This document shows positions 5,177-17,059 of a stretch of DNA of 64,000 bases, piece by piece. The DNA lies in contig JANLIR010000003.1 in NCBI GenBank assembly GCA_024654025.1, positions 1,658 to 65,657 on the forward strand. The letters are read 5' to 3'. Position 1 is the first letter of the stretch. Every line of letters begins with the position of its first letter. A program made the translations under genes and the position numbers. This DNA is from Candidatus Wolfebacteria bacterium (GTDB lineage Bacteria > Patescibacteriota > Minisyncoccia > UBA6257 > UBA9933). Under the pieces are notes generated by a model that was not told the DNA's origin, made no database searches, and saw only the letters and a list, made by a program, of their open reading frames with translations.

Positions 5177-7147
5177 ATGTTTTATTTTACAGTTGTTCCA
5201 GCATTGATAGCGATTTTGTACAGTGTTTACATAATTTTTTGGCTTCGAAAGCAGCCGGATGGGGACGAGAAAATGAAAGAAATTTCCGGCGCGATTAAAA
5301 CGGGCGCGATGGCGTTTTTAAACAGAGAATATCGCACGGTCGGGATTGTTGCGTTAGTTATATCAGTCGTTTTATTTATAGCTTTCGGATGGCTATCGGT
5401 TTTGGGATTTTTAATCGGCGCGTCAGCGTCGGCCTTCGCCGGTTATATCGGGATGTTAATTTCGGTCAGTTCTAATTTAAAGACAACCGAGGCGGCGAAA
5501 AAAGGTTTGGCGCCGGCTTTGTACGTAGCTTTTAGAGCCGGTTCAGTTACCGGATTTTTAGTTGTAGCGCTTTCTCTTTTGGCGGTGAGTTTATTTTATT
5601 TCGCGACAAACGATTTGAAAGTTTTAGTTTCTTTGGGATTTGGCGCGAGTTTGATTTCCATATTCGCGCGGCTCGGCGGGGGAATTTTTACCAAAGCCGC
5701 TGACGTGGGAGCGGACTTGGTTGGGAAAGTTGAAGCCGGAATTCCCGAAGATGATCTGAGAAATCCGGCGGTTATCGCCGATTTAGTTGGAGATAACGCG
5801 GGTGATTGCGCGGGAATGGCAGCCGATCTTTTTGAAACTTACGCAGTTACTTTAATTGCTTCTATGCTTTTGGGCGCTTTGACTTTTGTCGGCAATGTCG
5901 GAATTTATTTCCCTTTGGCTTTGGCTGGAACAGCAATTATAGCTTCTGTTTTGGGAAGTTTGTTCGTGAAGCTTGGTAAAGACGGGAAAATTATGAAAGC
6001 GCTTTATAAAGGAGTTTTCGCTTCAACGATAATTTCGGCGATTTTGTTTTATCCGGTATCAATAATTTATTTTGGAAATAGTTACGGCGGTTATTATTTG
6101 AGCGCGTTGGTTGGATTGGTCGTGATGGTTTTGATGGTGGTGGTAACCGATTATTATACTTCGAAAAGTTTTAGGCCGGTTAAATCAATCGCCGACGCGT
6201 CCAAATCTGGACATGGAACAAATATTATTATGGGTTTGGCAATAAGTATGGAGTCTACATTTTTGCCGGTTGTGATAATCGGCGCGGGGATTTTAGCGAG
6301 TTTTTATTTGGCGGGAATTTACGGCGTGGCTACCGCGGTTTTGGCAATGCTTTCAGCTACGGGAATGATTGTGGCAATTGATTCTTTCGGGCCTATTACC
6401 GATAACGCCGGCGGAATCGCGGAGATGACGCACCAACCGGAAGAGGTCAGAAAAGTTACTGACGCTTTGGATGCGGTAGGAAACACAACTAAAGCGGTTA
6501 CTAAGGGATATGCTATTGCTTCGGCAGGGCTGGCGGCTTTGGTTCTTTTTGCCAGTTATTCGCAGGAACTATCCGCGCATCTGGGAGGAATTAATTTTGA
6601 TTTGAGCGACCCGTTAGTAATTATCGGATTAATTGCCGGAGCTTCTATCCCTTATTTATTCGGGTCGTTCGCGATGCGCTCAGTTGGAAAAGCCGCGGGA
6701 ACGGTTGTTGAAGAAGTTAGGAGGCAGTTTCGGGAAATCCCCGGAATCATGGAAGGCACTGGAAAGCCGGATTACCACAGGGCGGTTGATATTGTTACCA
6801 AAGCGGCTCTTAAAGAAATGATAGTGCCGGCGCTTCTTCCGATTGCCGCTGTTTTACTTGTTGGGTTTTTACTTGGCGCTAAAGCTTTGGGGGGGCTTTT
6901 AATCGGTTCGATTATTTCCGGACTTTTTGTGGCTATTTCAATGACGTCAGGAGGAGCGGCGTGGGACAATGCCAAGAAATATATTGAAGAAGGAAATTAC
7001 GGCGGAAAAGGTTCTGACGCCCATAAAGCAGCAGTTACCGGAGATACTGTCGGCGATCCTTATAAAGACACTGCCGGTCCGGCGATAAATCCTTTGATAA
7101 AAGTCATAAACATAGTCGCGCTTTTAATTGTAAAGTTTTTGAAGTAG
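5177..7147 (+). CDS. hppA: Membrane-bound proton-translocating pyrophosphatase (V-type H+-PPase)
   Basis: [20 protein letters not shown] and [19 protein letters not shown] motifs, 15-16 TM. Confidence 0.9.
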
Positions 7148-9667: not shown

Positions 9668-9726
9668 TTGAAAAGATTAAATTAAATAACTAGGCGTTGT
9701 GGTATACATTTACTACAATTGTTTCC

Positions 9727-9770
9727 GATCGGAAACAATTGTAGTAAATGTGAATAACCGACAGATATAA
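9727..9770. repeat. 44-bp perfect palindrome (19-6-19) centred on CGATCG
   Basis: catttactacaattgtttc cgatcg gaaacaattgtagtaaatg; checked by hand to be perfectly self-complementary. Confidence 0.8.
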
Positions 9771-9791: not shown

Positions 9792-9822
9792 TTGACAAGT
9801 ATACCTAGGGGGGAGGTATAAT
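9792..9822 (+). promoter_or_regulatory. Promoter (TTGACA - 19 bp - TATAAT) containing a CsoR-type operator TATACCT-AGGGGGG-AGGTATA
   Basis: 7-7-7 G-tract pseudo-palindrome at 9800-9820 matches the ATACC-N(G/C tract)-GGTAT operator class bound by CsoR repressors; lies immediately upstream of a csoR homologue. Confidence 0.7.
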
Positions 9823-9831
9823 GAATAATTA

Positions 9832-10098
9832 ATGAAAAAAAATAAAGAAATTATTACGGCGCTTAAAAAAGCGGACAGCCATTTAAAAAATATTATAGAA
9901 ATGGTTGAAAAAGAAGAGTATTGCGTAGATATTCTTCAGCAGAACTTGGCGGTTATCGGCCTTTTAAAATCAGCCAATAATAAGTTGATGGAGGGTCATT
10001 TGAATACTTGTTTTATTGAAGCAATAAAAGGATCAAATAAAAGGAAGGCGCAGAAAATGATTGACGAGCTTTTGCGGATAAATAAAAAAGTTCAATAA
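9832..10098 (+). CDS. csoR: CsoR/RcnR-family metal-sensing transcriptional repressor
   Basis: EEYCVDILQQNLAVIGLLKSANNKLMEGHLNTCF: the conserved Cys...His...Cys copper-ligand signature of the CsoR (DUF156) family. Confidence 0.8.
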   Translation: MKKNKEIITALKKADSHLKNIIEMVEKEEYCVDILQQNLAVIGLLKSANNKLMEGHLNTCFIEAIKGSNKRKAQKMIDELLRINKKVQ

Positions 10099-10111
10099 TT
10101 TTACGAATTTT

Positions 10112-11014
10112 ATGGAAAATAAAAACAAATACTTATTGCCTGTTTCGTTTTTTATATCAGCGATTTTAATTTCCGCCGCATTTATTTACAGCGCCGGATT
10201 AAAAAGCAAAGAAGGCGGGAATTATCCGGAAAGTGTCGCGTTAGCCAATAAATCCGGAGAGTCTAATTTTAGAGAAATTACGGCTCCGCCTCAAGGAACG
10301 GAATTGCCGGTTAAATGGGGAGATCTTGGGAAAAAAATGGTTGAAGCCGGAGTTATTGACTCAGAACAGATAAAAGCGATCTATGACAAAAGAGGAGGAC
10401 TAAGCGAAGAAGATAGAAATATTATTTTTGGAGATAACAACGGAAATTTAGTGATTACTCCTAAAAATTCCGGTTTGATTTTGAACATGCTTTGGGCGTT
10501 GGGATTAGTTAATAAAAATGAAATTCTAGAAAAAGGGCCGATGCAAAATTACGGCGACGCGGGAAAATTTGCTTCTACCGGCGGATGGTCGCTTGCCAAG
10601 GGAAGCGCCATGAATTATTACAGTAGCCGCGAGTTTGTGAAATTAACGCCGGCTCAACAAGATTTAGTGGAAAGAGTTTCCAAAAATATTTATCGGCCGT
10701 GTTGCGATAATTCGACTTATTTTCCAGATTGCAATCATGGGATGGCGATGCTGGGATTTTTACAGCTAATGGCCAGTCAAGGAGTTGGTGAAAGCGATAT
10801 GTATAGAGCGGCGCTAGTGTTGAATTCTTACTGGTTTCCGGATAATTATGCGACAATAGCCAAATATTTTAAACAAAAAGGAGTTGAATGGGACAAAGTT
10901 GACGCTAAAAATGTTTTGAGTGAGGAATTTTCAAGTATCTCCGGATACGAAAATATTGTTTCAAAAATAACCGAGCCCAAAGAAAATAAAGGAGGCGGAG
11001 GTTGCGGAGTATAA
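10112..11014 (+). CDS. Exported/membrane-anchored hypothetical protein with a Cys/His/Met cluster (putative metal-binding)
   Basis: N-terminal TM/signal; RPCCDNSTYFPDCNHGMAM cluster; C-terminal GGGGCGV; sits between csoR and the Cu-efflux genes. Confidence 0.5.
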   Translation: MENKNKYLLPVSFFISAILISAAFIYSAGLKSKEGGNYPESVALANKSGESNFREITAPPQGTELPVKWGDLGKKMVEAGVIDSEQIKAIYDKRGGLSEEDRNIIFGDNNGNLVITPKNSGLILNMLWALGLVNKNEILEKGPMQNYGDAGKFASTGGWSLAKGSAMNYYSSREFVKLTPAQQDLVERVSKNIYRPCCDNSTYFPDCNHGMAMLGFLQLMASQGVGESDMYRAALVLNSYWFPDNYATIAKYFKQKGVEWDKVDAKNVLSEEFSSISGYENIVSKITEPKENKGGGGCGV

Positions 11015-11018
11015 AATT

Positions 11019-11870
11019 ATGAGTTTACTGATAAGCGCATCGTTAATAGCGGCTTTTTTCGCCGGGGTAGCGGCATTATTCGCGCCGTGTTGTGTGACGG
11101 TTCTTTTACCGTCTTATCTAGCCTCAATTTTTAGGCAAAAATATAAATTGTTTTTGATGACGTTTATATTCTTTTTGGGAATCGCAACTGTGTTTTTGCC
11201 TATAGGGTTGGGAGCTGCGGCGCTGGCTCAAATTTTCAGTCGGTATCACAACGTAATTTTCGGGGCCGGCGGAATATTTTTGATAATTATGGGATTAGTT
11301 CTTGTTTTGGGAAAAAAGTTTTCATTGCCGTTTAAAGTTCATCCGAAATTGGAAGCTAATAATGCGGGGTCGGTTTATGTGCTGGGAATTTTTTCCGGCA
11401 TTGCCACGACTTGTTGCGCTCCGGTTTTGGCGGGGGTTATTGCTTTAACGGTTATGCCCGGTTCGGTGTTTTTGGGAGTTATGTATACCCTAGCTTATGT
11501 TTTAGGAATGGTGATACCGCTTTTTATTTTGGCGTCTTTGGTTGATAAAACAAACGCAACTAACAGGTTTATGGTTTTAAAAAGACAGGTTGAATATACA
11601 TTTTTGGGAAGCAAAATTCGCGTCGCGGTTTCGGATATTATTTCCGGAGCGATATTTTTACTGATGGGATTAATAACAACTTATCTGGCTTTTACGAATA
11701 AGCTTTTTGTCCATTCGGCGTATCAAATGAACATAAATATTTATGTGGATAAAATAACCAAGGCAATCGGCGGTATTATCGGATTTGTGCCCCAGTATGT
11801 TTGGGCGTTGGTTGTGCTTTTGATAATAATTTTAATAACTAAAAAGTCGATTAATCAATTTAGAAAATAG
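11019..11870 (+). CDS. CcdA/DsbD-family transmembrane thiol-disulfide transporter-like protein
   Basis: polytopic membrane protein with membrane-embedded Cys pairs (FAPCCVTVLLP, ATTCCAPVLAG) as in DsbD/CcdA-type electron-transfer proteins. Confidence 0.55.
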   Translation: MSLLISASLIAAFFAGVAALFAPCCVTVLLPSYLASIFRQKYKLFLMTFIFFLGIATVFLPIGLGAAALAQIFSRYHNVIFGAGGIFLIIMGLVLVLGKKFSLPFKVHPKLEANNAGSVYVLGIFSGIATTCCAPVLAGVIALTVMPGSVFLGVMYTLAYVLGMVIPLFILASLVDKTNATNRFMVLKRQVEYTFLGSKIRVAVSDIISGAIFLLMGLITTYLAFTNKLFVHSAYQMNINIYVDKITKAIGGIIGFVPQYVWALVVLLIIILITKKSINQFRK

Positions 11871-12461
11871 ATGAAAAAATTTAGTATTTTTATAGCGGTT
11901 GCCGCTATTGCGCTACTTGGAGGAATGTATTATTTTGGCGGTCGAAATATTCAAAGCAATAATATTGGCGGACAAAAAACAAGCGCCGGATCGCTTGATG
12001 GTTTAGTCGGAAAACCAGTGTTAGGGTTTTCTTTGACCGATAGAGAAGGCAAAATTTATTCTTCCGAAAATTTGAAGGGCAAAAATTATGTCTTGTTTTT
12101 TAACGAGGGACTAATGTGTTATCCGGCTTGTTGGAGCCAAATGGCAGAGTTTGGAAAAGACGAGCGTTTTAATAAAGAAGATTTATTGGCATTTTCCGTT
12201 GTCGTTGATTCCAAGTCCGAATGGCAATCCGCGATTTCTAAAATGCCGGAGTTGGCCAGAACTAAAGTTTTGTTTGATAGCGGCGCAATTGTTTCCAGAA
12301 AATTCAATGTTTTAACGGTTAATTCCTCAATGCATTACGGCTCAATGCCGGGCCATACTTATATTGTGGTTGATAAAAGCGGCGTTGTCAGATACGTATA
12401 TGACGATCCGACAATGGCAATAAACAACGATATGTTGTTTATTAAAATTAATAGCTTTTAA
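11871..12461 (+). CDS. Sco/SenC-like thioredoxin-fold copper-binding protein (membrane-anchored, extracytoplasmic)
   Basis: N-terminal TM, CxxxC (CYPAC) followed about 90 aa later by a His in [14 protein letters not shown], the Sco1/SenC Cu-ligand arrangement; start abuts the upstream stop. Confidence 0.6.
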
Positions 12462-12493
12462 TTAAAATTTGGCTTTGTGCTATTTCTAACGGT

Positions 12494-14785
12494 ATGAAGA
12501 AAACTTTTCAAATTATAGGAATGGACTGCGCGTCGTGCGCGGCGGCAATAGAATATTCAGTTAAAAAAATAAATGGCGTTAAAGACGCCAATGTTAATTA
12601 TGCCTCCGAAAAGCTGTTTGTTGACTTCGAAAAAGAAATAAACGACCAAGAAATAAAAGAAGCGGTTAAAAGAACCGGTTACCAAATTATTTCCGGAGGC
12701 GACCACGCGTCAATGGATCATAGTCAAATGGATCATTCTAAAATGGATCACGCCGAACATGGCGAAGAACACGATCACGCTAAGATGTTGAGCGAGGCAG
12801 AGACAAAGACGCTTAAAAATAAATTTTGGTTTGGGACGATTGCGTCTTTGATAACTTTGGTTTTGAGTTTTGGTAAAAGTTATATCGGTTTTATACCAAA
12901 AGATTTTAATTTAGTGTTGCTTGTTATTCTAGCGACGCCGGTTGAGTTTTGGGTGGGCAAGCAATTTTGGAGAGGAGCGTACTTTGAATTTAAAAATTTC
13001 AGGCCGGGCATGGATAGTTTGGTTGTGCTTGGCACCGGAGCAGCTTATTTTTTCAGCGTAGTTGTGTCGGTTTTTAATATTATTCCGGCGTTTAATAATT
13101 TTTTTATAGCTCAATTTGAGCCGTATTTTGACGTGGCGGTAGTAGTTGTCACTTTTATAATCTTGGGGAAATTTTTGGAAGCCAAGGCAAAAGGTTCGGC
13201 TTCGGAAGCGATAAAAAAATTATTAAAACTTCAAGCTAAAACCGCCCATCATATTATGCCTGACGGCTCAATACATGATATTGATATTGATAACGTGAAA
13301 GTCGGCGATGTTTTATTAGTAAAGCAAGGCGAAAAAATTCCGGTTGACGGCGTTATTTTTGAGGGAGCGACGTCAATTGACGAGTCAATGGTGACCGGAG
13401 AATCGCTTCCGGTTGATAAAAAAGAGGGCGATAAAGTTATCGGCGCCACCATTAACAAAAGCGAGTTGTTTAAAATGAAAGCGACTAAGATAGGTAAAGA
13501 CACTTTTTTGTCGCAGATTGTTAAAATTGTTGAAGAGGCGCAGGCGTCAAAAGCGCCGATTCAAAAATTGGCCGATAAAATAACCGGAGTTTTTGTGCCG
13601 ATAGTTATAGCGGTCGCCACATTGACGTTTATTGTATGGATGATTTTGGGACCGGAGCCGCGTTTTGTTTACGCTTTGATAAACGCCGTAGCGGTTTTGG
13701 TTGTTGCGTGTCCTTGCGCTTTGGGGCTTGCCACTCCGATTGCGGTAATTACCGGCACGGGTAAAGGCGCGGAAAACGGAATCATAATAAGAAACGCCAG
13801 TTCTTTGGAAACAGCGGGGAGAATTAATACCGTGGTTTTGGATAAAACCGGAACCATTACTAAAGGCGAGCCGGCTATAACGGATATAATAACCAACGAC
13901 CCACAAATAACGAAAAACGACATATTGCAGATTGGGGCGAGTTTGGATCAAAACTCGTCGCATCCTATCGGCAAGGCAGTTGTTTTAAAAGCCAAAAACG
14001 AAAATATTAAACTAAGTTTGGTTTCGGAATTTTCAACGATTCTCGGAAAAGGAGTAAAAGGAAAAATTGAAAACAAAGAATATATTTTCGGAAGCAAAAA
14101 AATAATAGGCGATTATCAAATTGATTTCCCGACGCAATTAATGCACTCGCTTGAAGAATTGGAAGAGCAAGGGAAAACGGTTTTGATTTTGTCCGACACA
14201 AAAAAGATTTTAGGCATAGTGGCGGTTGCCGATACTTTGAAAGAGACTGCCAAAGAAACTGTTGATAAGTTAAAAAAATTAGAGGTGGATGTTTGGATGA
14301 TAACTGGAGATAACGAAAGAACCGCGCACGCTATTGCCGAGAAGGTCGGCATTAAAAATGTTTTGGCTTCGGTTTTGCCGGAGCAAAAATCTCAAAAAGT
14401 AAAAGAATTGCAGGATAAAGGATTTGTTGTGGCAATGGTTGGTGATGGTATTAACGACGCGCCGGCTTTGACGCAAGCCGATATTGGAATCGCTATTGGA
14501 ACCGGGACGGACATTGCTATAGAATCAGCGGGCATAACTTTGGCTTCCGGCGATCCGGTTGGAGTGTATAAGGCGATTCTGCTTTCCAGAAAAACTTTGA
14601 AAAACATCAAGCAGAATCTTTTTTGGGCCTATGCTTATAATATAGCTTTGATTCCTGTGGCAGCCGGGGTTTTGTATCCGGCATTCGGATTGCTTTTGAA
14701 CCCGATTTTGGCCGGCGCGGCAATGGCTTTTAGTTCGCTTTCGGTTGTGCTAAACTCGTTGAGGTTAAAGAGAATCAAGTTTTAA
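12494..14785 (+). CDS. copA: Copper-translocating P1B-type ATPase CopA
   Basis: N-terminal HMA domain [12 protein letters not shown], His-rich MDH repeats, CPC ([12 protein letters not shown]), DKTGTIT phosphorylation site, GDGINDAP. Confidence 0.9.
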
Positions 14786-14825
14786 ATTAGGGAGTAAGTC
14801 GGCTCCTTATAATAAAAATTTAATT

Positions 14826-15104
14826 ATGTACTACAACAATATGATGAATCCTTATGGTTGGGGAGGCGGATACGGGATGATGCAGTTTGGATTGCTGGGA
14901 TGGATTTTTATGGTTTTGTGGTGGGTTATAGTCATTGCCGTGATTGTCTGGGTGATCAGAGCGATTTTTGGACGAGGAAGAAGGAATTATTGGCAAGAGT
15001 GGCATGGAGAAAAAGGACCTTTGGAAATTTTAAAAGAAAGATACGCGAAAGGAGAGATTGATAAGAGTGAGTATGAAGAGAAAAAGAAAGACCTTGAAAA
15101 ATAA
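14826..15104 (+). CDS. SHOCT-domain small membrane protein
   Basis: TM helix then LEILKERYAKGEIDKSEYEEKKKDL (SHOCT-like C-terminal motif). Confidence 0.55.
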   Translation: MYYNNMMNPYGWGGGYGMMQFGLLGWIFMVLWWVIVIAVIVWVIRAIFGRGRRNYWQEWHGEKGPLEILKERYAKGEIDKSEYEEKKKDLEK

Positions 15105-15129
15105 TACTTCGGCCAGCTTAGTATAAACT

Positions 15130-15160
15130 AAAACAGTCCCGCCACGGCGGGACTGTTTTA
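15130..15160. terminator. Bidirectional rho-independent terminator
   Basis: aaaacagtcccgcc-acg-ggcgggactgtttt, perfect 13-bp stem flanked by an A-run and a T-run. Confidence 0.8.
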
Positions 15161-15199
15161 GTTATTGGTGTATTTATTGTACCAAGCGCGAACCTATTT

Positions 15200-15394
15200 T
15201 CAAAACAAGTGATGTTCCGCCAGAGGCGGACAGGCGCACGCACGGAGCGTGTGGTGGCTTAAGATTGAGTCGAGATTGCAACTCTTGTGTTTTTTACACC
15301 ACGCCTCGTATTTTTCCGCCCATTCCTTGTCTCGGTATTTTAATCCGCACTCAGAGCATTGGTAGGACTTTTGGTTTTGATTGGCGTTATTCAT
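15200..15394 (-). CDS. Small Cys-rich (zinc-ribbon-like) protein
   Basis: CSECG...CKKHKSC; start abuts the upstream stop codon (translational coupling). Confidence 0.4.
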   Translation of the reverse strand: MNNANQNQKSYQCSECGLKYRDKEWAEKYEAWCKKHKSCNLDSILSHHTLRACACPPLAEHHLF

Positions 15395-15865
15395 TTATTC
15401 AACCACAATCGTACCACCTTCACCGGGGTTAAGATGATTGTGATATTTCCAGTTGCCTGCCTTAGTGAAAGTAAAAGAATAATTTTCGCCCCTTGAGTAT
15501 CCGCGTTTTGCGTCAAAACCAGAATAATCGGTATGAATCGGATGAGGGTTTGAAGCAACCCACATCGGCCCTGACTTTTCGTTTTTGAAGATAACTGTTG
15601 TTCCGATCTTCACGCGAAGAATGCTCGGAGAAAATCCTGAATCGCTGTATGCTACGACATTCTTTTCTGTGGCTGGCGCTTGACTTACGGATGGCTGCGA
15701 AACTGGCTGCTCGGTTGACGGCACCGAAGTTTGCTGTTGCGGAACTGTTTGCTGATTTGATGTTTGAGGAACCGACGGTGTCGATTGGGATGTCCCCTTA
15801 AAAAGAAAATATCCGCCAACGAGAACAACTGCGACGATAACAATTGCGATGATAGATTTGTTCAT
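15395..15865 (-). CDS. Secreted cupredoxin-fold-like protein (His-rich, no Cys; putative metal binding)
   Basis: signal/TM then a Ser/Thr/Pro/Gln linker then a beta-rich domain KIGTTVIFKNEKSGPMWVASNPHPIHTD...WKYHNH; fold assignment is tentative. Confidence 0.4.
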   Translation of the reverse strand: MNKSIIAIVIVAVVLVGGYFLFKGTSQSTPSVPQTSNQQTVPQQQTSVPSTEQPVSQPSVSQAPATEKNVVAYSDSGFSPSILRVKIGTTVIFKNEKSGPMWVASNPHPIHTDYSGFDAKRGYSRGENYSFTFTKAGNWKYHNHLNPGEGGTIVVE

Positions 15866-15927
15866 ATAAGTTTAGTTATTGATTAAAGTTAATAAATTAT
15901 TTTTAAAGGCTTTCGGCTTTGGCCCTT

Positions 15928-16116
15928 TTATTTTTCTTTCCATTTCCACCATACAAGTCCAGCCGCAACTAAGAAAGCAACTCCGATTATCCCATGTATG
16001 TTGTGTAGATATAATCCAAATTGTTCATGATTAAGTGGTAATGGAGCTGTGTGGTCAATAAGCCAATAAAGTCCGATAATAACTAAAACGATAACCGTAA
16101 TAATTGTTTTGTTCAT
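15928..16116 (-). CDS. Small two-TM membrane protein
   Basis: 62 aa, two hydrophobic helices, Trp-rich C-terminus. Confidence 0.4.
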   Translation of the reverse strand: MNKTIITVIVLVIIGLYWLIDHTAPLPLNHEQFGLYLHNIHGIIGVAFLVAAGLVWWKWKEK

Positions 16117-16139
16117 ATTGGTTAAGATTACTAATTATT

Positions 16140-16760
16140 TTATCCGCGAGCGTTTTTGAGGGCGCGGGTCCACCACAAAAGTTGAGTGATCATGGCCTTT
16201 GCCTGATCTGCAAGCGAGGCGAAAAGTTCTTTTGCGTCCATTTTGCCAAAGAGCACTTGGAAATACTGCTCGCCGGGAATGTGCACCGCCACTCGGATCG
16301 GCGCCATTTGAAGCTCAACGGCATTGAGGCGTAACTGTTCAACTGCGCGCGCTCCGCCGACACCGCCATAACTTACGAAGGCAACCGGCTTATTGTTCCA
16401 TTCCTGATAGACCCAATCGAGAGCATTTTTCAGCACGCCGGACGTGCCGTGGTTGTATTCCGGGGTAATCATAATAAAAGCGTCTCCCTCTGCAATTTTT
16501 TTGGTAAAGCGCGTGACTGCCTCGTTCTTAAACGGCTCTTGCTTGAATGACGGACTCACGGGTTCGTTAAAAAACGGCATCTCGTAATCCCTCAAGTCAA
16601 GCACCTCGACCGAAATCCCGTTTTGTTTCTTGATTTCATCGGCAATCCACACAGCGGCTTTATCGCTAAATCGGCCTTCGCGAGTGCTACCTGCTATTAC
16701 TTTGATGTTGAGTGATGTAGTGTTTTTCATAGGTTGTAAAATTAATTTAATAAATCTCAC
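16140..16760 (-). CDS. NAD(P)H-dependent FMN reductase (flavodoxin-like fold, ArsH/ChrR family)
   Basis: IKVIAGSTREGRFS...PEYNHGTSGVLKNALDW motifs of PF03358; GTG start overlaps the arsR-family stop (GTGA); alternative ATG at 16730. Confidence 0.7.
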   Translation of the reverse strand: MRFIKLILQPMKNTTSLNIKVIAGSTREGRFSDKAAVWIADEIKKQNGISVEVLDLRDYEMPFFNEPVSPSFKQEPFKNEAVTRFTKKIAEGDAFIMITPEYNHGTSGVLKNALDWVYQEWNNKPVAFVSYGGVGGARAVEQLRLNAVELQMAPIRVAVHIPGEQYFQVLFGKMDAKELFASLADQAKAMITQLLWWTRALKNARG

Positions 16761-17059
16761 GCGCTACTTTTTCGCTTTTTCTTTGGTCTAATCTCCTCTG
16801 CAAGGCGTTTGAGGAGGTGGATGGTGTGCTCGACATTGAGCGTATACCGAACTTCCTGCCCTTGCCGTTCATCTTGCACCAAGCCAGTTTCCCTAAGAAC
16901 GCGCAGGTGCTGAGATACGAGGGGTTGAGACAGTTTTGTTTTCCTCGCAAGCTCGCTTACCGTCTTATGGCCGGAGAAAAGTGCCTCCACGATGCGATAG
17001 CGCGGAACACTCCCGATACCCTTACCAAACTTTTCCATTTCCTTGCACAAATCTGTCAT
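16757..17059 (-). CDS. ArsR/SmtB-family HTH transcriptional regulator
   Basis: RYRIVEALFSGHKTVSELARKTKLSQPLVSQHLRVLRETGLV winged-helix signature. Confidence 0.75.
   Translation of the reverse strand: MTDLCKEMEKFGKGIGSVPRYRIVEALFSGHKTVSELARKTKLSQPLVSQHLRVLRETGLVQDERQGQEVRYTLNVEHTIHLLKRLAEEIRPKKKRKSSA

Follow-up and report, generated by a model that had tools for sequence, protein, structure and literature searches.

Why does a copper-efflux operon carry three genes for envelope thiol proteins between the gene of its repressor and the gene of its pump? The question is raised by a 64,000-nucleotide stretch of the Candidatus Wolfebacteria assembly GCA_024654025.1 (contig JANLIR010000003.1, positions 1,658–65,657, forward strand), hereafter called the window. 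In this window, csoR and copA flank the genes of two membrane-anchored exported proteins and one membrane protein of the CcdA/DsbD family. A preliminary description of the locus had taken one of the exported proteins as Sco-like, and had suggested that this protein and the CcdA-like protein were borrowed from cytochrome oxidase maturation. Our analysis points to a different answer. We propose that the window unit is a copper-stress operon of a Patescibacteria (Candidate Phyla Radiation, CPR) bacterium, and that it encodes a copper-induced envelope thiol-reduction relay, which serves a new Cu(I)-handling protein; we assign a probability of about 0.5 to this explanation as a whole. The three envelope proteins are named unk300 (10112–11014), CC-CcdA (11019–11870) and Rdx (11871–12461); sizes are given in amino acids (aa).

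9792–9822, + strand: promoter and CsoR operator, read from the sequence
9832–10098, + strand: csoR, 88 aa, apparently Cu(I)-sensing repressor (PF02583)
10112–11014, + strand: unk300, 300 aa, membrane-anchored exported protein of a new family
11019–11870, + strand: CC-CcdA, membrane protein of the CcdA/DsbD_TM family (PF02683)
11871–12461, + strand: Rdx, 196 aa, membrane-anchored exported protein of peroxiredoxin fold
12494–14785, + strand: copA, predicted P1B-1 Cu(I)-exporting ATPase (TIGR01511)
14826–15104, + strand: SHOCT protein, with a single transmembrane (TM) helix, a Met/Gly-rich N-terminus and a C-terminal SHOCT domain (PF09851)
15126–15163, both strands: bidirectional intrinsic terminator, common to the convergent minus-strand genes

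For comparison, 80 species-level loci around unk300 relatives were fetched (numbered with L), many of which are truncated where a contig stops. Counts within three genes of unk300 are based on the 78 loci whose unk300 open reading frame (ORF) is complete. All ORFs of the loci were compared with the window proteins and clustered all against all; families obtained in this way are numbered with cl.

A predicted CsoR-controlled transcription unit

The six ORFs are all located on the + strand, in the order and at the positions that had been described, and are separated by gaps of 13, 4, 0, 32 and 40 bp. The family labels previously given to CsoR, CopA and the SHOCT protein were confirmed by profile searches, with all three scores above the cut-offs: CsoR matched PF02583 with an E-value of 4.4e-18 (65.9 bits, cut-off 22.8), CopA matched TIGR01511 with 1.6e-184 (614.8 bits, cut-off 397) and the SHOCT protein matched PF09851 with 2e-10 (40.5 bits, cut-off 27). 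The CsoR translation contains a C31, H56 and C60 triad; its 25/4 spacing equals what we take to be that of Cys36, His61 and Cys65 in M. tuberculosis CsoR. CopA contains one N-terminal HMA domain (MDCASC; E = 1.6e-13, 51.3 bits), which is followed by a His/Met-rich linker. Its MxCxxC, CPC, DKTGT, YN and MxxSS motifs are located at residues 10, 406, 450, 715 and 744, respectively; CPC was placed in TM4, YN in TM5 and MxxSS in TM6. This motif set is the signature of a P1B-1 type exporter, as which CopA is predicted to work. The operon had also been described as being without a CopZ-type chaperone. This stands for a separate protein, as the 64-kb window contains no standalone CopZ/HMA ORF, but CopA carries an HMA domain of its own.

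The csoR promoter consists of TTGACA (9792–9797) and TATAAT (9817–9822), which are separated by a 19-nt spacer; our consensus promoter scan covered spacers of 16–18 nt and so did not list it. The CsoR operator ATACCTAGGGGGGAGGTAT is located inside the promoter, at 9801–9819, and the palindrome extends to 9800–9820; the palindrome TATACCTAGGGGGGAGGTATA was placed between the -35 and -10 hexamers. The operator core, ATACC-N9-GGTAT, occurs once in the 64 kb, versus 0.01 expected occurrences. Characterised CsoR operators are G-tract pseudopalindromes with a TAC-X9-GTA inverted repeat (PMC3902906). The window box likewise has TAC and GTA around a G-tract; however, its spacing is X11, a variant that is also present in the closest relative, L008. 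CsoR is apparently a Cu(I) sensor acting on a box that overlaps the promoter.

At the other end of the unit, the hairpin that had been described as a perfect bidirectional terminator (15126–15163) is indeed perfect: it has a 17-bp stem and a 4-nt loop, and it is flanked by an A-run and a T-run. Its folding energy is -29.4 kcal/mol (z = -7.5), and none of 200 shuffled sequences folds as well. In the consensus scan, no comparable terminator was found inside the six-gene unit. Taken together with the promoter-to-hairpin layout, this indicated that the six genes are likely to form one transcription unit.

Two further observations concern the region upstream of csoR. One perfect 22-bp hairpin (9705–9752; -33.8 kcal/mol, z = -7.05) is located between trmD and the csoR promoter. 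It lacks a T-run and occurs only once in the window; it may terminate trmD transcription or serve as a site for protein binding. Only 9 bp separate the end of TATAAT from the csoR ATG, and a Shine-Dalgarno sequence cannot be recognised. In most of the related loci that carry csoR, an ATACCCC-N-GGGGTAT box is located ∼27 bp upstream of the gene. Because the -10 hexamer is so close to the ATG, and the box so close to csoR in most relatives, the csoR mRNA is probably leaderless across these lineages.

unk300 belongs to a new protein family

As had been described, the 300-aa exported protein contains a Cys/His/Met cluster, PCCDNSTYFPDCNHGMAM. In the alignment of the family, R195-P-C197-C198, N200, F204-P-D206-C207-N-H209-G-M211-A-M213 and FASTGGW are invariant, and so is C298, which is located in the C-terminal GGGGCGV tail. 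The identity between lineages is 55–60%. The H-x-M-x-M and CC/C motifs look like typical Cu(I) ligand sets.

unk300 gave no match in Pfam and NCBIfam, even at E = 10, and no match in PDB, either with the single sequence or with the family profile. The AlphaFold2 (AF2) model is confident overall, with a predicted local distance difference test (pLDDT) score of 83.8; when it was compared with PDB by Foldseek, no fold match was found (best E = 1.6, TM-score <0.17). The confidence of the model is low in the C-terminal tail, which is therefore probably flexible. Based on these searches, we consider unk300 a new protein family within the CC-CcdA/Rdx/unk300 cassette. The family is large: 5,962 homologues remain at 90% clustering, they form 713 clusters at 50% identity, and at least 573 matches were found in GTDB species representatives. 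The source names of the homologues are all patescibacterial or unclassified "bacterium", except for one partial sequence labelled Thermodesulfobacteriota.

Both unk300 and Rdx start with an N-terminal helix that is preceded by lysines. By the positive-inside rule, this indicates a signal anchor, with the domain located outside. Some unk300 relatives are longer; their N-terminal extensions have no Pfam match, and one C-terminal extension contains a BNR repeat. Among the relatives, unk300 is in some cases fused to the membrane protein cl7 (with CPICAG and a C-terminal CC) or to a domain of several TM helices that carries GxGCxxCG within the membrane; the latter domain is also present as a standalone protein in L017, L035, L046 and L047. 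A second unk300 paralogue of ∼500 aa, with an N-terminal multi-TM domain carrying GxGCxxCG, was observed in L018 (11465–12955, minus strand), P0280, P0292, P0312 and P0336. In L018, this paralogue and a standard unk300 coexist in one locus.

CC-CcdA is a CcdA with doubled cysteines

The description of the 11019–11870 product as a CcdA/DsbD-like protein with two CC pairs was correct. CC-CcdA matched PF02683 with 33.4 bits (cut-off 27.1), it aligned with Thermus CcdA (5vkv; E = 2.8e-13) over residues 6–181, and its APCC and TTCC(AP) motifs both lie in hydrophobic segments. The first Cys of each pair, APCC and TTCC, corresponds to one of the two catalytic Cys of Thermus CcdA, in the TM1 and TM4 repeats; CC-CcdA contains one extra Cys at the +1 position of each canonical Cys. 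Both CC motifs are kept in 119 of the 120 top homologues, all of which have patescibacterial or unclassified "bacterium" source names. The protein has a C-terminal extension of ∼100 aa. In the Pfam and NCBIfam searches and in the 5vkv alignment, CC-CcdA matched the DsbD transmembrane core only, without the alpha (tandem Ig-like) or gamma domains of the Scs type, and no MerT or MerF family was matched in Pfam or NCBIfam at E ≤0.01. In P0502, CC-CcdA is fused to Rdx.

CC-CcdA is predicted to take electrons from thioredoxin in the cytoplasm and to hand them to an exported thiol protein. CcdA proteins are general reductant exporters. In streptococci, CcdA feeds Etrx/MsrAB in a host without a cytochrome c pathway (PMC3914529); the earlier premise that CcdA was recruited from cytochrome maturation is therefore unnecessary.

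Rdx is of peroxiredoxin fold

The CxxxC motif and the distal His previously noted in the 196-aa protein are present, as C83-x3-C87 with H155 and H162; the Sco-like identity built on them did not hold up. Rdx matched AhpC-TSA (PF00578; 2.1e-12, 47.5 bits, cut-off 26) and Redoxin (PF08534; 3.9e-10, 40.1 bits) over the whole domain. In contrast, its match to SCO1/SenC (PF02630; E = 0.086, 13.2 bits) is below the cut-off of 22.8 bits and covers only ∼40 residues (53–93). Each of the 120 top Rdx homologues matches both PF08534 and PF00578 and bears the name redoxin or peroxiredoxin. When the profile of 45 members was searched against PDB, peroxiredoxins ranked first (2ywn, 9.7e-10, full length), whereas the Sco structure 4hde was matched at 2.3e-4, over the N-terminal half only (E = 0.05 with the single sequence). 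The AF2 model of Rdx (pLDDT 81.1) gave the same picture: the top 50 Foldseek matches are peroxiredoxins or AhpC/AhpE plus one thioredoxin, with E-values of about 1e-9 and TM-scores of 0.6–0.8 relative to the targets, and no Sco protein is among them. Grouping with peroxiredoxins instead of Sco proteins had been named beforehand as the result that would speak against the Sco label, and it is the result given by both the profile and the Foldseek rankings. Rdx was therefore rejected as a Sco homologue.

Rdx was also rejected as a working peroxidase. In the HMMER alignment with 2ywn, E79, C83 and H162 stand where the peroxiredoxin has its catalytic Pro, Thr and Arg, respectively, and of the catalytic positions only that of the peroxidatic Cys is kept, as C87; it is the loss of the catalytic Thr and Arg that speaks against peroxidase activity. 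The residues invariant among the 45 sequences are M82, C83, Y84, P85, C87, W88, S152, S153, M154, H155, P160, G161, H162, D178, D179, P180 and M182, which form the motifs M82-C83-Y-P-A-C87-W, S-S-M154-H155, P-G-H162 and D-D-P-x-M182. Such a CxxxC amid invariant His and Met suggests a soft-metal site. As CxxxC, two His and three Met are all invariant, Rdx itself probably binds copper. Both H155 and H162 are kept; H162 aligns with the peroxiredoxin Arg, and the comparison with the Sco His is an unaligned one. A Sco-like copper site of the Cys2-His kind, kept reduced by CcdA, is possible in Rdx; it would reflect convergence on a peroxiredoxin scaffold and not shared ancestry.

The cassette is conserved across Patescibacteria

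The six genes of the window are all present in L008, whose unk300 match is 90% identical at the amino-acid level, and variants of the cassette were found in most of the 78 species-level loci. At a distance of up to three genes from unk300, 63 of these loci contain a Cys-bearing membrane partner, 49 contain CopA, CsoR or SHOCT, and 71 contain either kind. The commonest immediate downstream neighbour is a P1B ATPase (21/78). The numbers of loci, out of 80, in which the families were found within ±8 kb of unk300 are listed below.

P1B ATPase: 63
cl3, 137-aa membrane protein without Pfam match: 50
DUF1573: 49
Canonical CcdA: 42
CsoR: 34
cl6: 24
CC-CcdA: 23
cl7: 21
Rdx: 19
cl9, membrane-anchored WCPHC thioredoxin: 15
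SHOCT: 12

These genes are arranged in three main forms. Cassette A reads cl3, DUF1573, canonical CcdA, cl6 or cl7 in some loci, thioredoxin in some loci, unk300 and ATPase. Cassette B, the type of the window, reads cl3, Rdx and CC-CcdA in either order, unk300 and ATPase. Cassette C reads DUF1573, CC-CcdA, unk300 and ATPase. CC-CcdA and canonical CcdA are nearly exclusive, with only three loci in common. Of the 19 loci with Rdx, 17 also have CC-CcdA, and of the 42 with canonical CcdA, 41 also have DUF1573. DUF1573 plus canonical CcdA, in some loci with the WCPHC thioredoxin, holds the same position beside unk300 as CC-CcdA plus Rdx does. Across the phylum, unk300 is genomically locked to P1B copper ATPases and Cys-bearing membrane proteins.

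The accessory families deserve some description. cl3 opens the cassette in 50 of the 80 loci. DUF1573, an Ig-like domain with an SCMC motif, is nearly always located directly before canonical CcdA (for example in L012–L015, L019 and L028), and the pair looks like a split DsbD. The DUF1573 family includes selenoproteins whose motif is UGC (PMC9312934), in keeping with a redox-active CxC. cl6 (172 aa) and the CPICAG membrane protein cl7 both end in a vicinal CC and lie just ahead of unk300, and no locus contains the two together; cl11, also a membrane protein, has an SCCAH motif within the membrane. Representatives of cl3, cl6, cl7 and cl11 gave nothing significant in Pfam. SHOCT homologues are located near unk300 or CopA in 12–13 of the 80 loci.

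The pump beside unk300 is mostly of the CPH type, CopB-like (13 CPH versus 4 CPC in related loci), whereas the pump beside csoR is mostly of the CPC type (9 CPC versus 1). The window merges both contexts around one CPC pump. In L035, L046 and L077, the CsoR box is also located upstream of copA. In L033 and L038, the thiol module is separate from copA; the box is present at 3722 in L033, ∼545 bp before CC-CcdA-Rdx-unk300 and with a cl3 gene between, and at 7675 in L038, before unk300-CC-CcdA-Rdx-csoR. L018 has one box between unk300 and CC-CcdA. As CsoR boxes precede the module in these loci, the module is predicted to belong to the CsoR regulon in several lineages beyond the window. The central observation of the preliminary description, that a CsoR-controlled copA operon carries an extracytoplasmic thiol module, is borne out by the window, and the coupling recurs, with CsoR boxes, in other genomes.

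Proposed mechanism and alternative explanations

The proposed mechanism is as follows. When cytoplasmic Cu(I) rises, CsoR would leave its operator, and CopA would pump Cu(I) to the outer face of the membrane. In parallel, reducing equivalents of cytoplasmic thioredoxin would cross the membrane by way of CC-CcdA and reach Rdx. Cys197, Cys198, Cys207 and Cys298 of unk300 would be kept reduced by Rdx, or by CC-CcdA itself via the flexible C298 tail, and in this state the Cys/His/Met site would allow unk300 to bind exported Cu(I), to buffer it or to hand it on. The strongest argument for an electron supply to unk300 is that CC-CcdA/Rdx appears interchangeable with canonical CcdA plus DUF1573, in some loci with a CxxC thioredoxin; these parts look like electron relays, which is what a canonical CcdA paired with a CxxC thioredoxin forms. 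The fusions of CC-CcdA with Rdx, and of unk300 with membrane domains, support direct partnerships.

Several points weigh against this proposal. Copper binding by unk300 and by Rdx is deduced from conserved residues only. Vicinal CC pairs, which are present in CC-CcdA, unk300 and the accessory families cl6, cl7 and cl11, are typical of the soft-metal carriers MerT and MerF and not of electron relays. The CxxxC of Rdx sits on a peroxiredoxin scaffold, different from the CxxC plus cis-Pro of known CcdA partners. In L001–L003, unk300 is located among housekeeping genes, with no metal gene nearby. In addition, the window box has X11 and not X9 spacing, and the promoter spacer is 19 nt long.

The CC pairs lead to an alternative that we consider doubtful. 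MerT and MerF work with vicinal Cys pairs that lie in their membrane helices, and CC-CcdA could similarly be a Cu(I) conduit through four central thiols, with Rdx and unk300 as Cu(I) chaperones at the outer face. The +1 Cys was gained symmetrically at both canonical positions and is kept almost without exception, unk300 likewise contains an invariant CC, with invariant C, H, M and M besides, and the Met and His around the CxxxC of Rdx would be needless in a plain redox relay; the CC tails of cl6 and cl7 and the intramembrane CC of cl11 fit as well. However, a canonical single-Cys CcdA replaces CC-CcdA in 42 of the 80 loci, together with DUF1573 and sometimes with the WCPHC thioredoxin, which points to electron transfer, and the Pfam and NCBIfam searches of CC-CcdA gave no MerT-family match at E ≤0.01. 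A CopA or CopB pump is usually present already, so that a second exporter would be redundant, and import of Cu(I) under CsoR derepression would be counterproductive. In its widest form, which we likewise regard as unlikely, unk300, CC-CcdA and Rdx would make up an unrecognised thiolate copper machine across the Paceibacteria-type Patescibacteria. The CcdA scaffold would have turned into a Cu(I) carrier or a Cu(I)-gated device, and unk300 would be a Cu(I) acceptor of new fold that docks on P1B pumps of the CopA or CopB kind. It is also conceivable, though with low probability in our judgement, that the operon encodes a copper-induced reductase or isomerase pathway for general thiol repair in the envelope, with unk300 as the terminal repair enzyme and not as a copper binder. 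Copper catalyses the formation of wrong disulfides and oxidises exported proteins, which is the premise of this explanation, and Scs and DsbC/DsbD systems act in copper tolerance (PMC10907172). CcdA-Etrx-MsrAB operons share the three-part logic (PMC3914529). The conservation of unk300 is enzyme-like, with 55–60% identity across lineages and many invariant residues that are not ligands; its flexible C-terminal Cys tail recalls swinging-arm reductases, and L001–L003 have it away from metal genes. On the other hand, the P1B ATPase, mostly of the CPH type, follows unk300 immediately in 21 of 78 loci, which is tighter than expected for a repair enzyme, and the H-x-M-x-M and CC/C motifs are of the kind typical of Cu(I) ligands.

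The two remaining explanations are far less probable. That unk300, CC-CcdA and Rdx act in some other, unrelated process of the envelope and are only incidental neighbours of copA is very improbable. L001–L003 and a few other loci do have unk300 without metal genes nearby, but a P1B ATPase is located within 8 kb in 63 of 80 loci and a copper or thiol-membrane gene within three genes in 71 of 78; CsoR boxes precede the module, and the window genes lie in one promoter-to-terminator unit. The least probable explanation is the original one, in which a genuine Sco and its CcdA partner were recruited from cytochrome oxidase or cytochrome c maturation to copper efflux. It could draw on the His located 75 residues downstream of the CxxxC, on the weak likeness of the N-terminal half to 4hde, and on the groundwater study in which Patescibacteria carry copA and almost all metagenome-assembled genomes are without respiratory complexes I–IV (PMC8672522). 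Against it, Rdx scores below the PF02630 cut-off and above those of AhpC-TSA and Redoxin, all 120 homologues are annotated as Redoxin/AhpC-TSA, and both the profile search and Foldseek rank peroxiredoxins first; with CcdA as a general reductant exporter, no repurposing is needed. In the 64 kb of the genome that our data cover, no ORF of at least 80 aa has a CxxCH motif except the prepilin peptidase, and the motif was therefore rejected as a sign of cytochrome c.

Neighbouring genes

Those neighbours of the operon in the window that were scanned are housekeeping genes. Upstream, a membrane H+-pyrophosphatase (5177–7147; PF03030, 866 bits) is located among ClpP, GAPDH and TrmD, as would suit an organism whose membrane is energised by means other than a respiratory chain. 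Downstream, a convergent group of minus-strand genes (15200–17059) has its terminator in common with the cop operon and forms a putative second metal operon:

16757–17059, minus strand: ArsR/SmtB regulator
16140–16760, minus strand: FMN reductase
15928–16116, minus strand: 62-aa membrane protein
15395–15865, minus strand: cupredoxin-like protein with His-rich motifs and no Cys after the leader region; Pfam matches below cut-off
15200–15394, minus strand: Znf64, small Cys-rich protein (C13-x2-C16 ... C33 ... C39)

In Pfam, Znf64 matched DUF7128 alone, below the threshold (5.8e-4). The family pattern is CxxC-x13-C-x3-C-x5-C, and the window copy has Tyr at the third Cys. L081 (8938–11406) encodes a P1B ATPase with the Znf64 domain as an N-terminal fusion; in L079 (9416–9595) and L075 (2639–2800), its relatives are located directly upstream of the ATPase. 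We tentatively suggest that Znf64 may be a cytoplasmic metal-binding partner of CopA, standing in for CopZ.

Comparison with known systems

The closest functional analogue appears to be the CopA, CueP and ScsB/C/D system of Salmonella. In Salmonella, copper induces a DsbD-family transporter and its thioredoxin-fold partners; they bind Cu(I) and act together with a periplasmic copper protein that contains Cys and can take Cu(I) from the pump. A peroxiredoxin and a peroxiredoxin-like protein are further substrates of ScsB, in Caulobacter (PMC10907172). The window system would likewise be copper-induced, would have a transporter of the DsbD/CcdA superfamily that feeds exported thiol proteins, and would include an extracytoplasmic Cys protein that receives Cu(I) from the P1B pump. 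The parts are different, however. The exported proteins of the window have no detected kinship with those of Scs/CueP, and unk300 is without family or fold match. ScsB has alpha and gamma domains, whereas CC-CcdA is a bare CcdA with CC pairs; the partner is of CxxC thioredoxin fold in Scs and of CxxxC peroxiredoxin fold in the window, and the window system is not a member of Scs. Salmonella regulates its system by CueR or CpxR, the window by a cytoplasmic CsoR. Different from Scs/CueP, the parts in the window are all located in one operon with copA, and no outer membrane is known from the host, a CPR bacterium.

The streptococcal CcdA-Etrx-MsrAB system has the same three parts, namely CcdA, an anchored relay of the thioredoxin superfamily and an exported Cys client (PMC3914529). 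Its client is MsrAB instead of unk300, its relay Etrx is of CxxC thioredoxin fold, different from the CxxxC peroxiredoxin fold of Rdx, and, unlike the window operon, it is neither copper-regulated nor linked to CopA. Compared to Sco with TlpA or CcdA, Rdx is likewise exported and has CxxxC and a downstream His, plausibly forming a Cys2-His site that is kept reduced; on the other side, it fails the Sco profile and the fold ranking, its scaffold is that of peroxiredoxins, and the 64-kb window contains no evident cytochrome oxidase client. With MerP-MerT/MerF, the window system has in common vicinal Cys in membrane helices and a Cys protein at the outer face. No sequence kinship was detected between the two, and the regulator and pump of the window are copper-specific. 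The canonical csoR-copZ-copA operons of Bacillus, Listeria and Streptomyces resemble the window operon in the C-H-C residues of CsoR, the G-tract operator and the CPC-type CopA. Different from them, the window is without copZ, adds three envelope thiol proteins and the SHOCT protein, and has X11 instead of X9 in its operator. In literature searches on CsoR with CcdA and on Patescibacteria with CopA, no description of the cassette was found.

Implications

Despite the very small genomes of Patescibacteria, this multi-gene copper/thiol cassette, built around a family without known relatives or fold, is retained in many of them. Our proposal gives a testable function to one of the larger "hypothetical" families of CPR bacteria, with ∼6,000 sequences. 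In CC-CcdA, a CcdA with doubled Cys, and in Rdx, a peroxiredoxin scaffold with a Sco-like CxxxC/His ligand set, the cassette also provides two cases for protein engineering. The link between copper efflux and envelope thiols, so far described for the enterobacterial Scs/CueP, appears to have arisen independently in Patescibacteria with unrelated parts.

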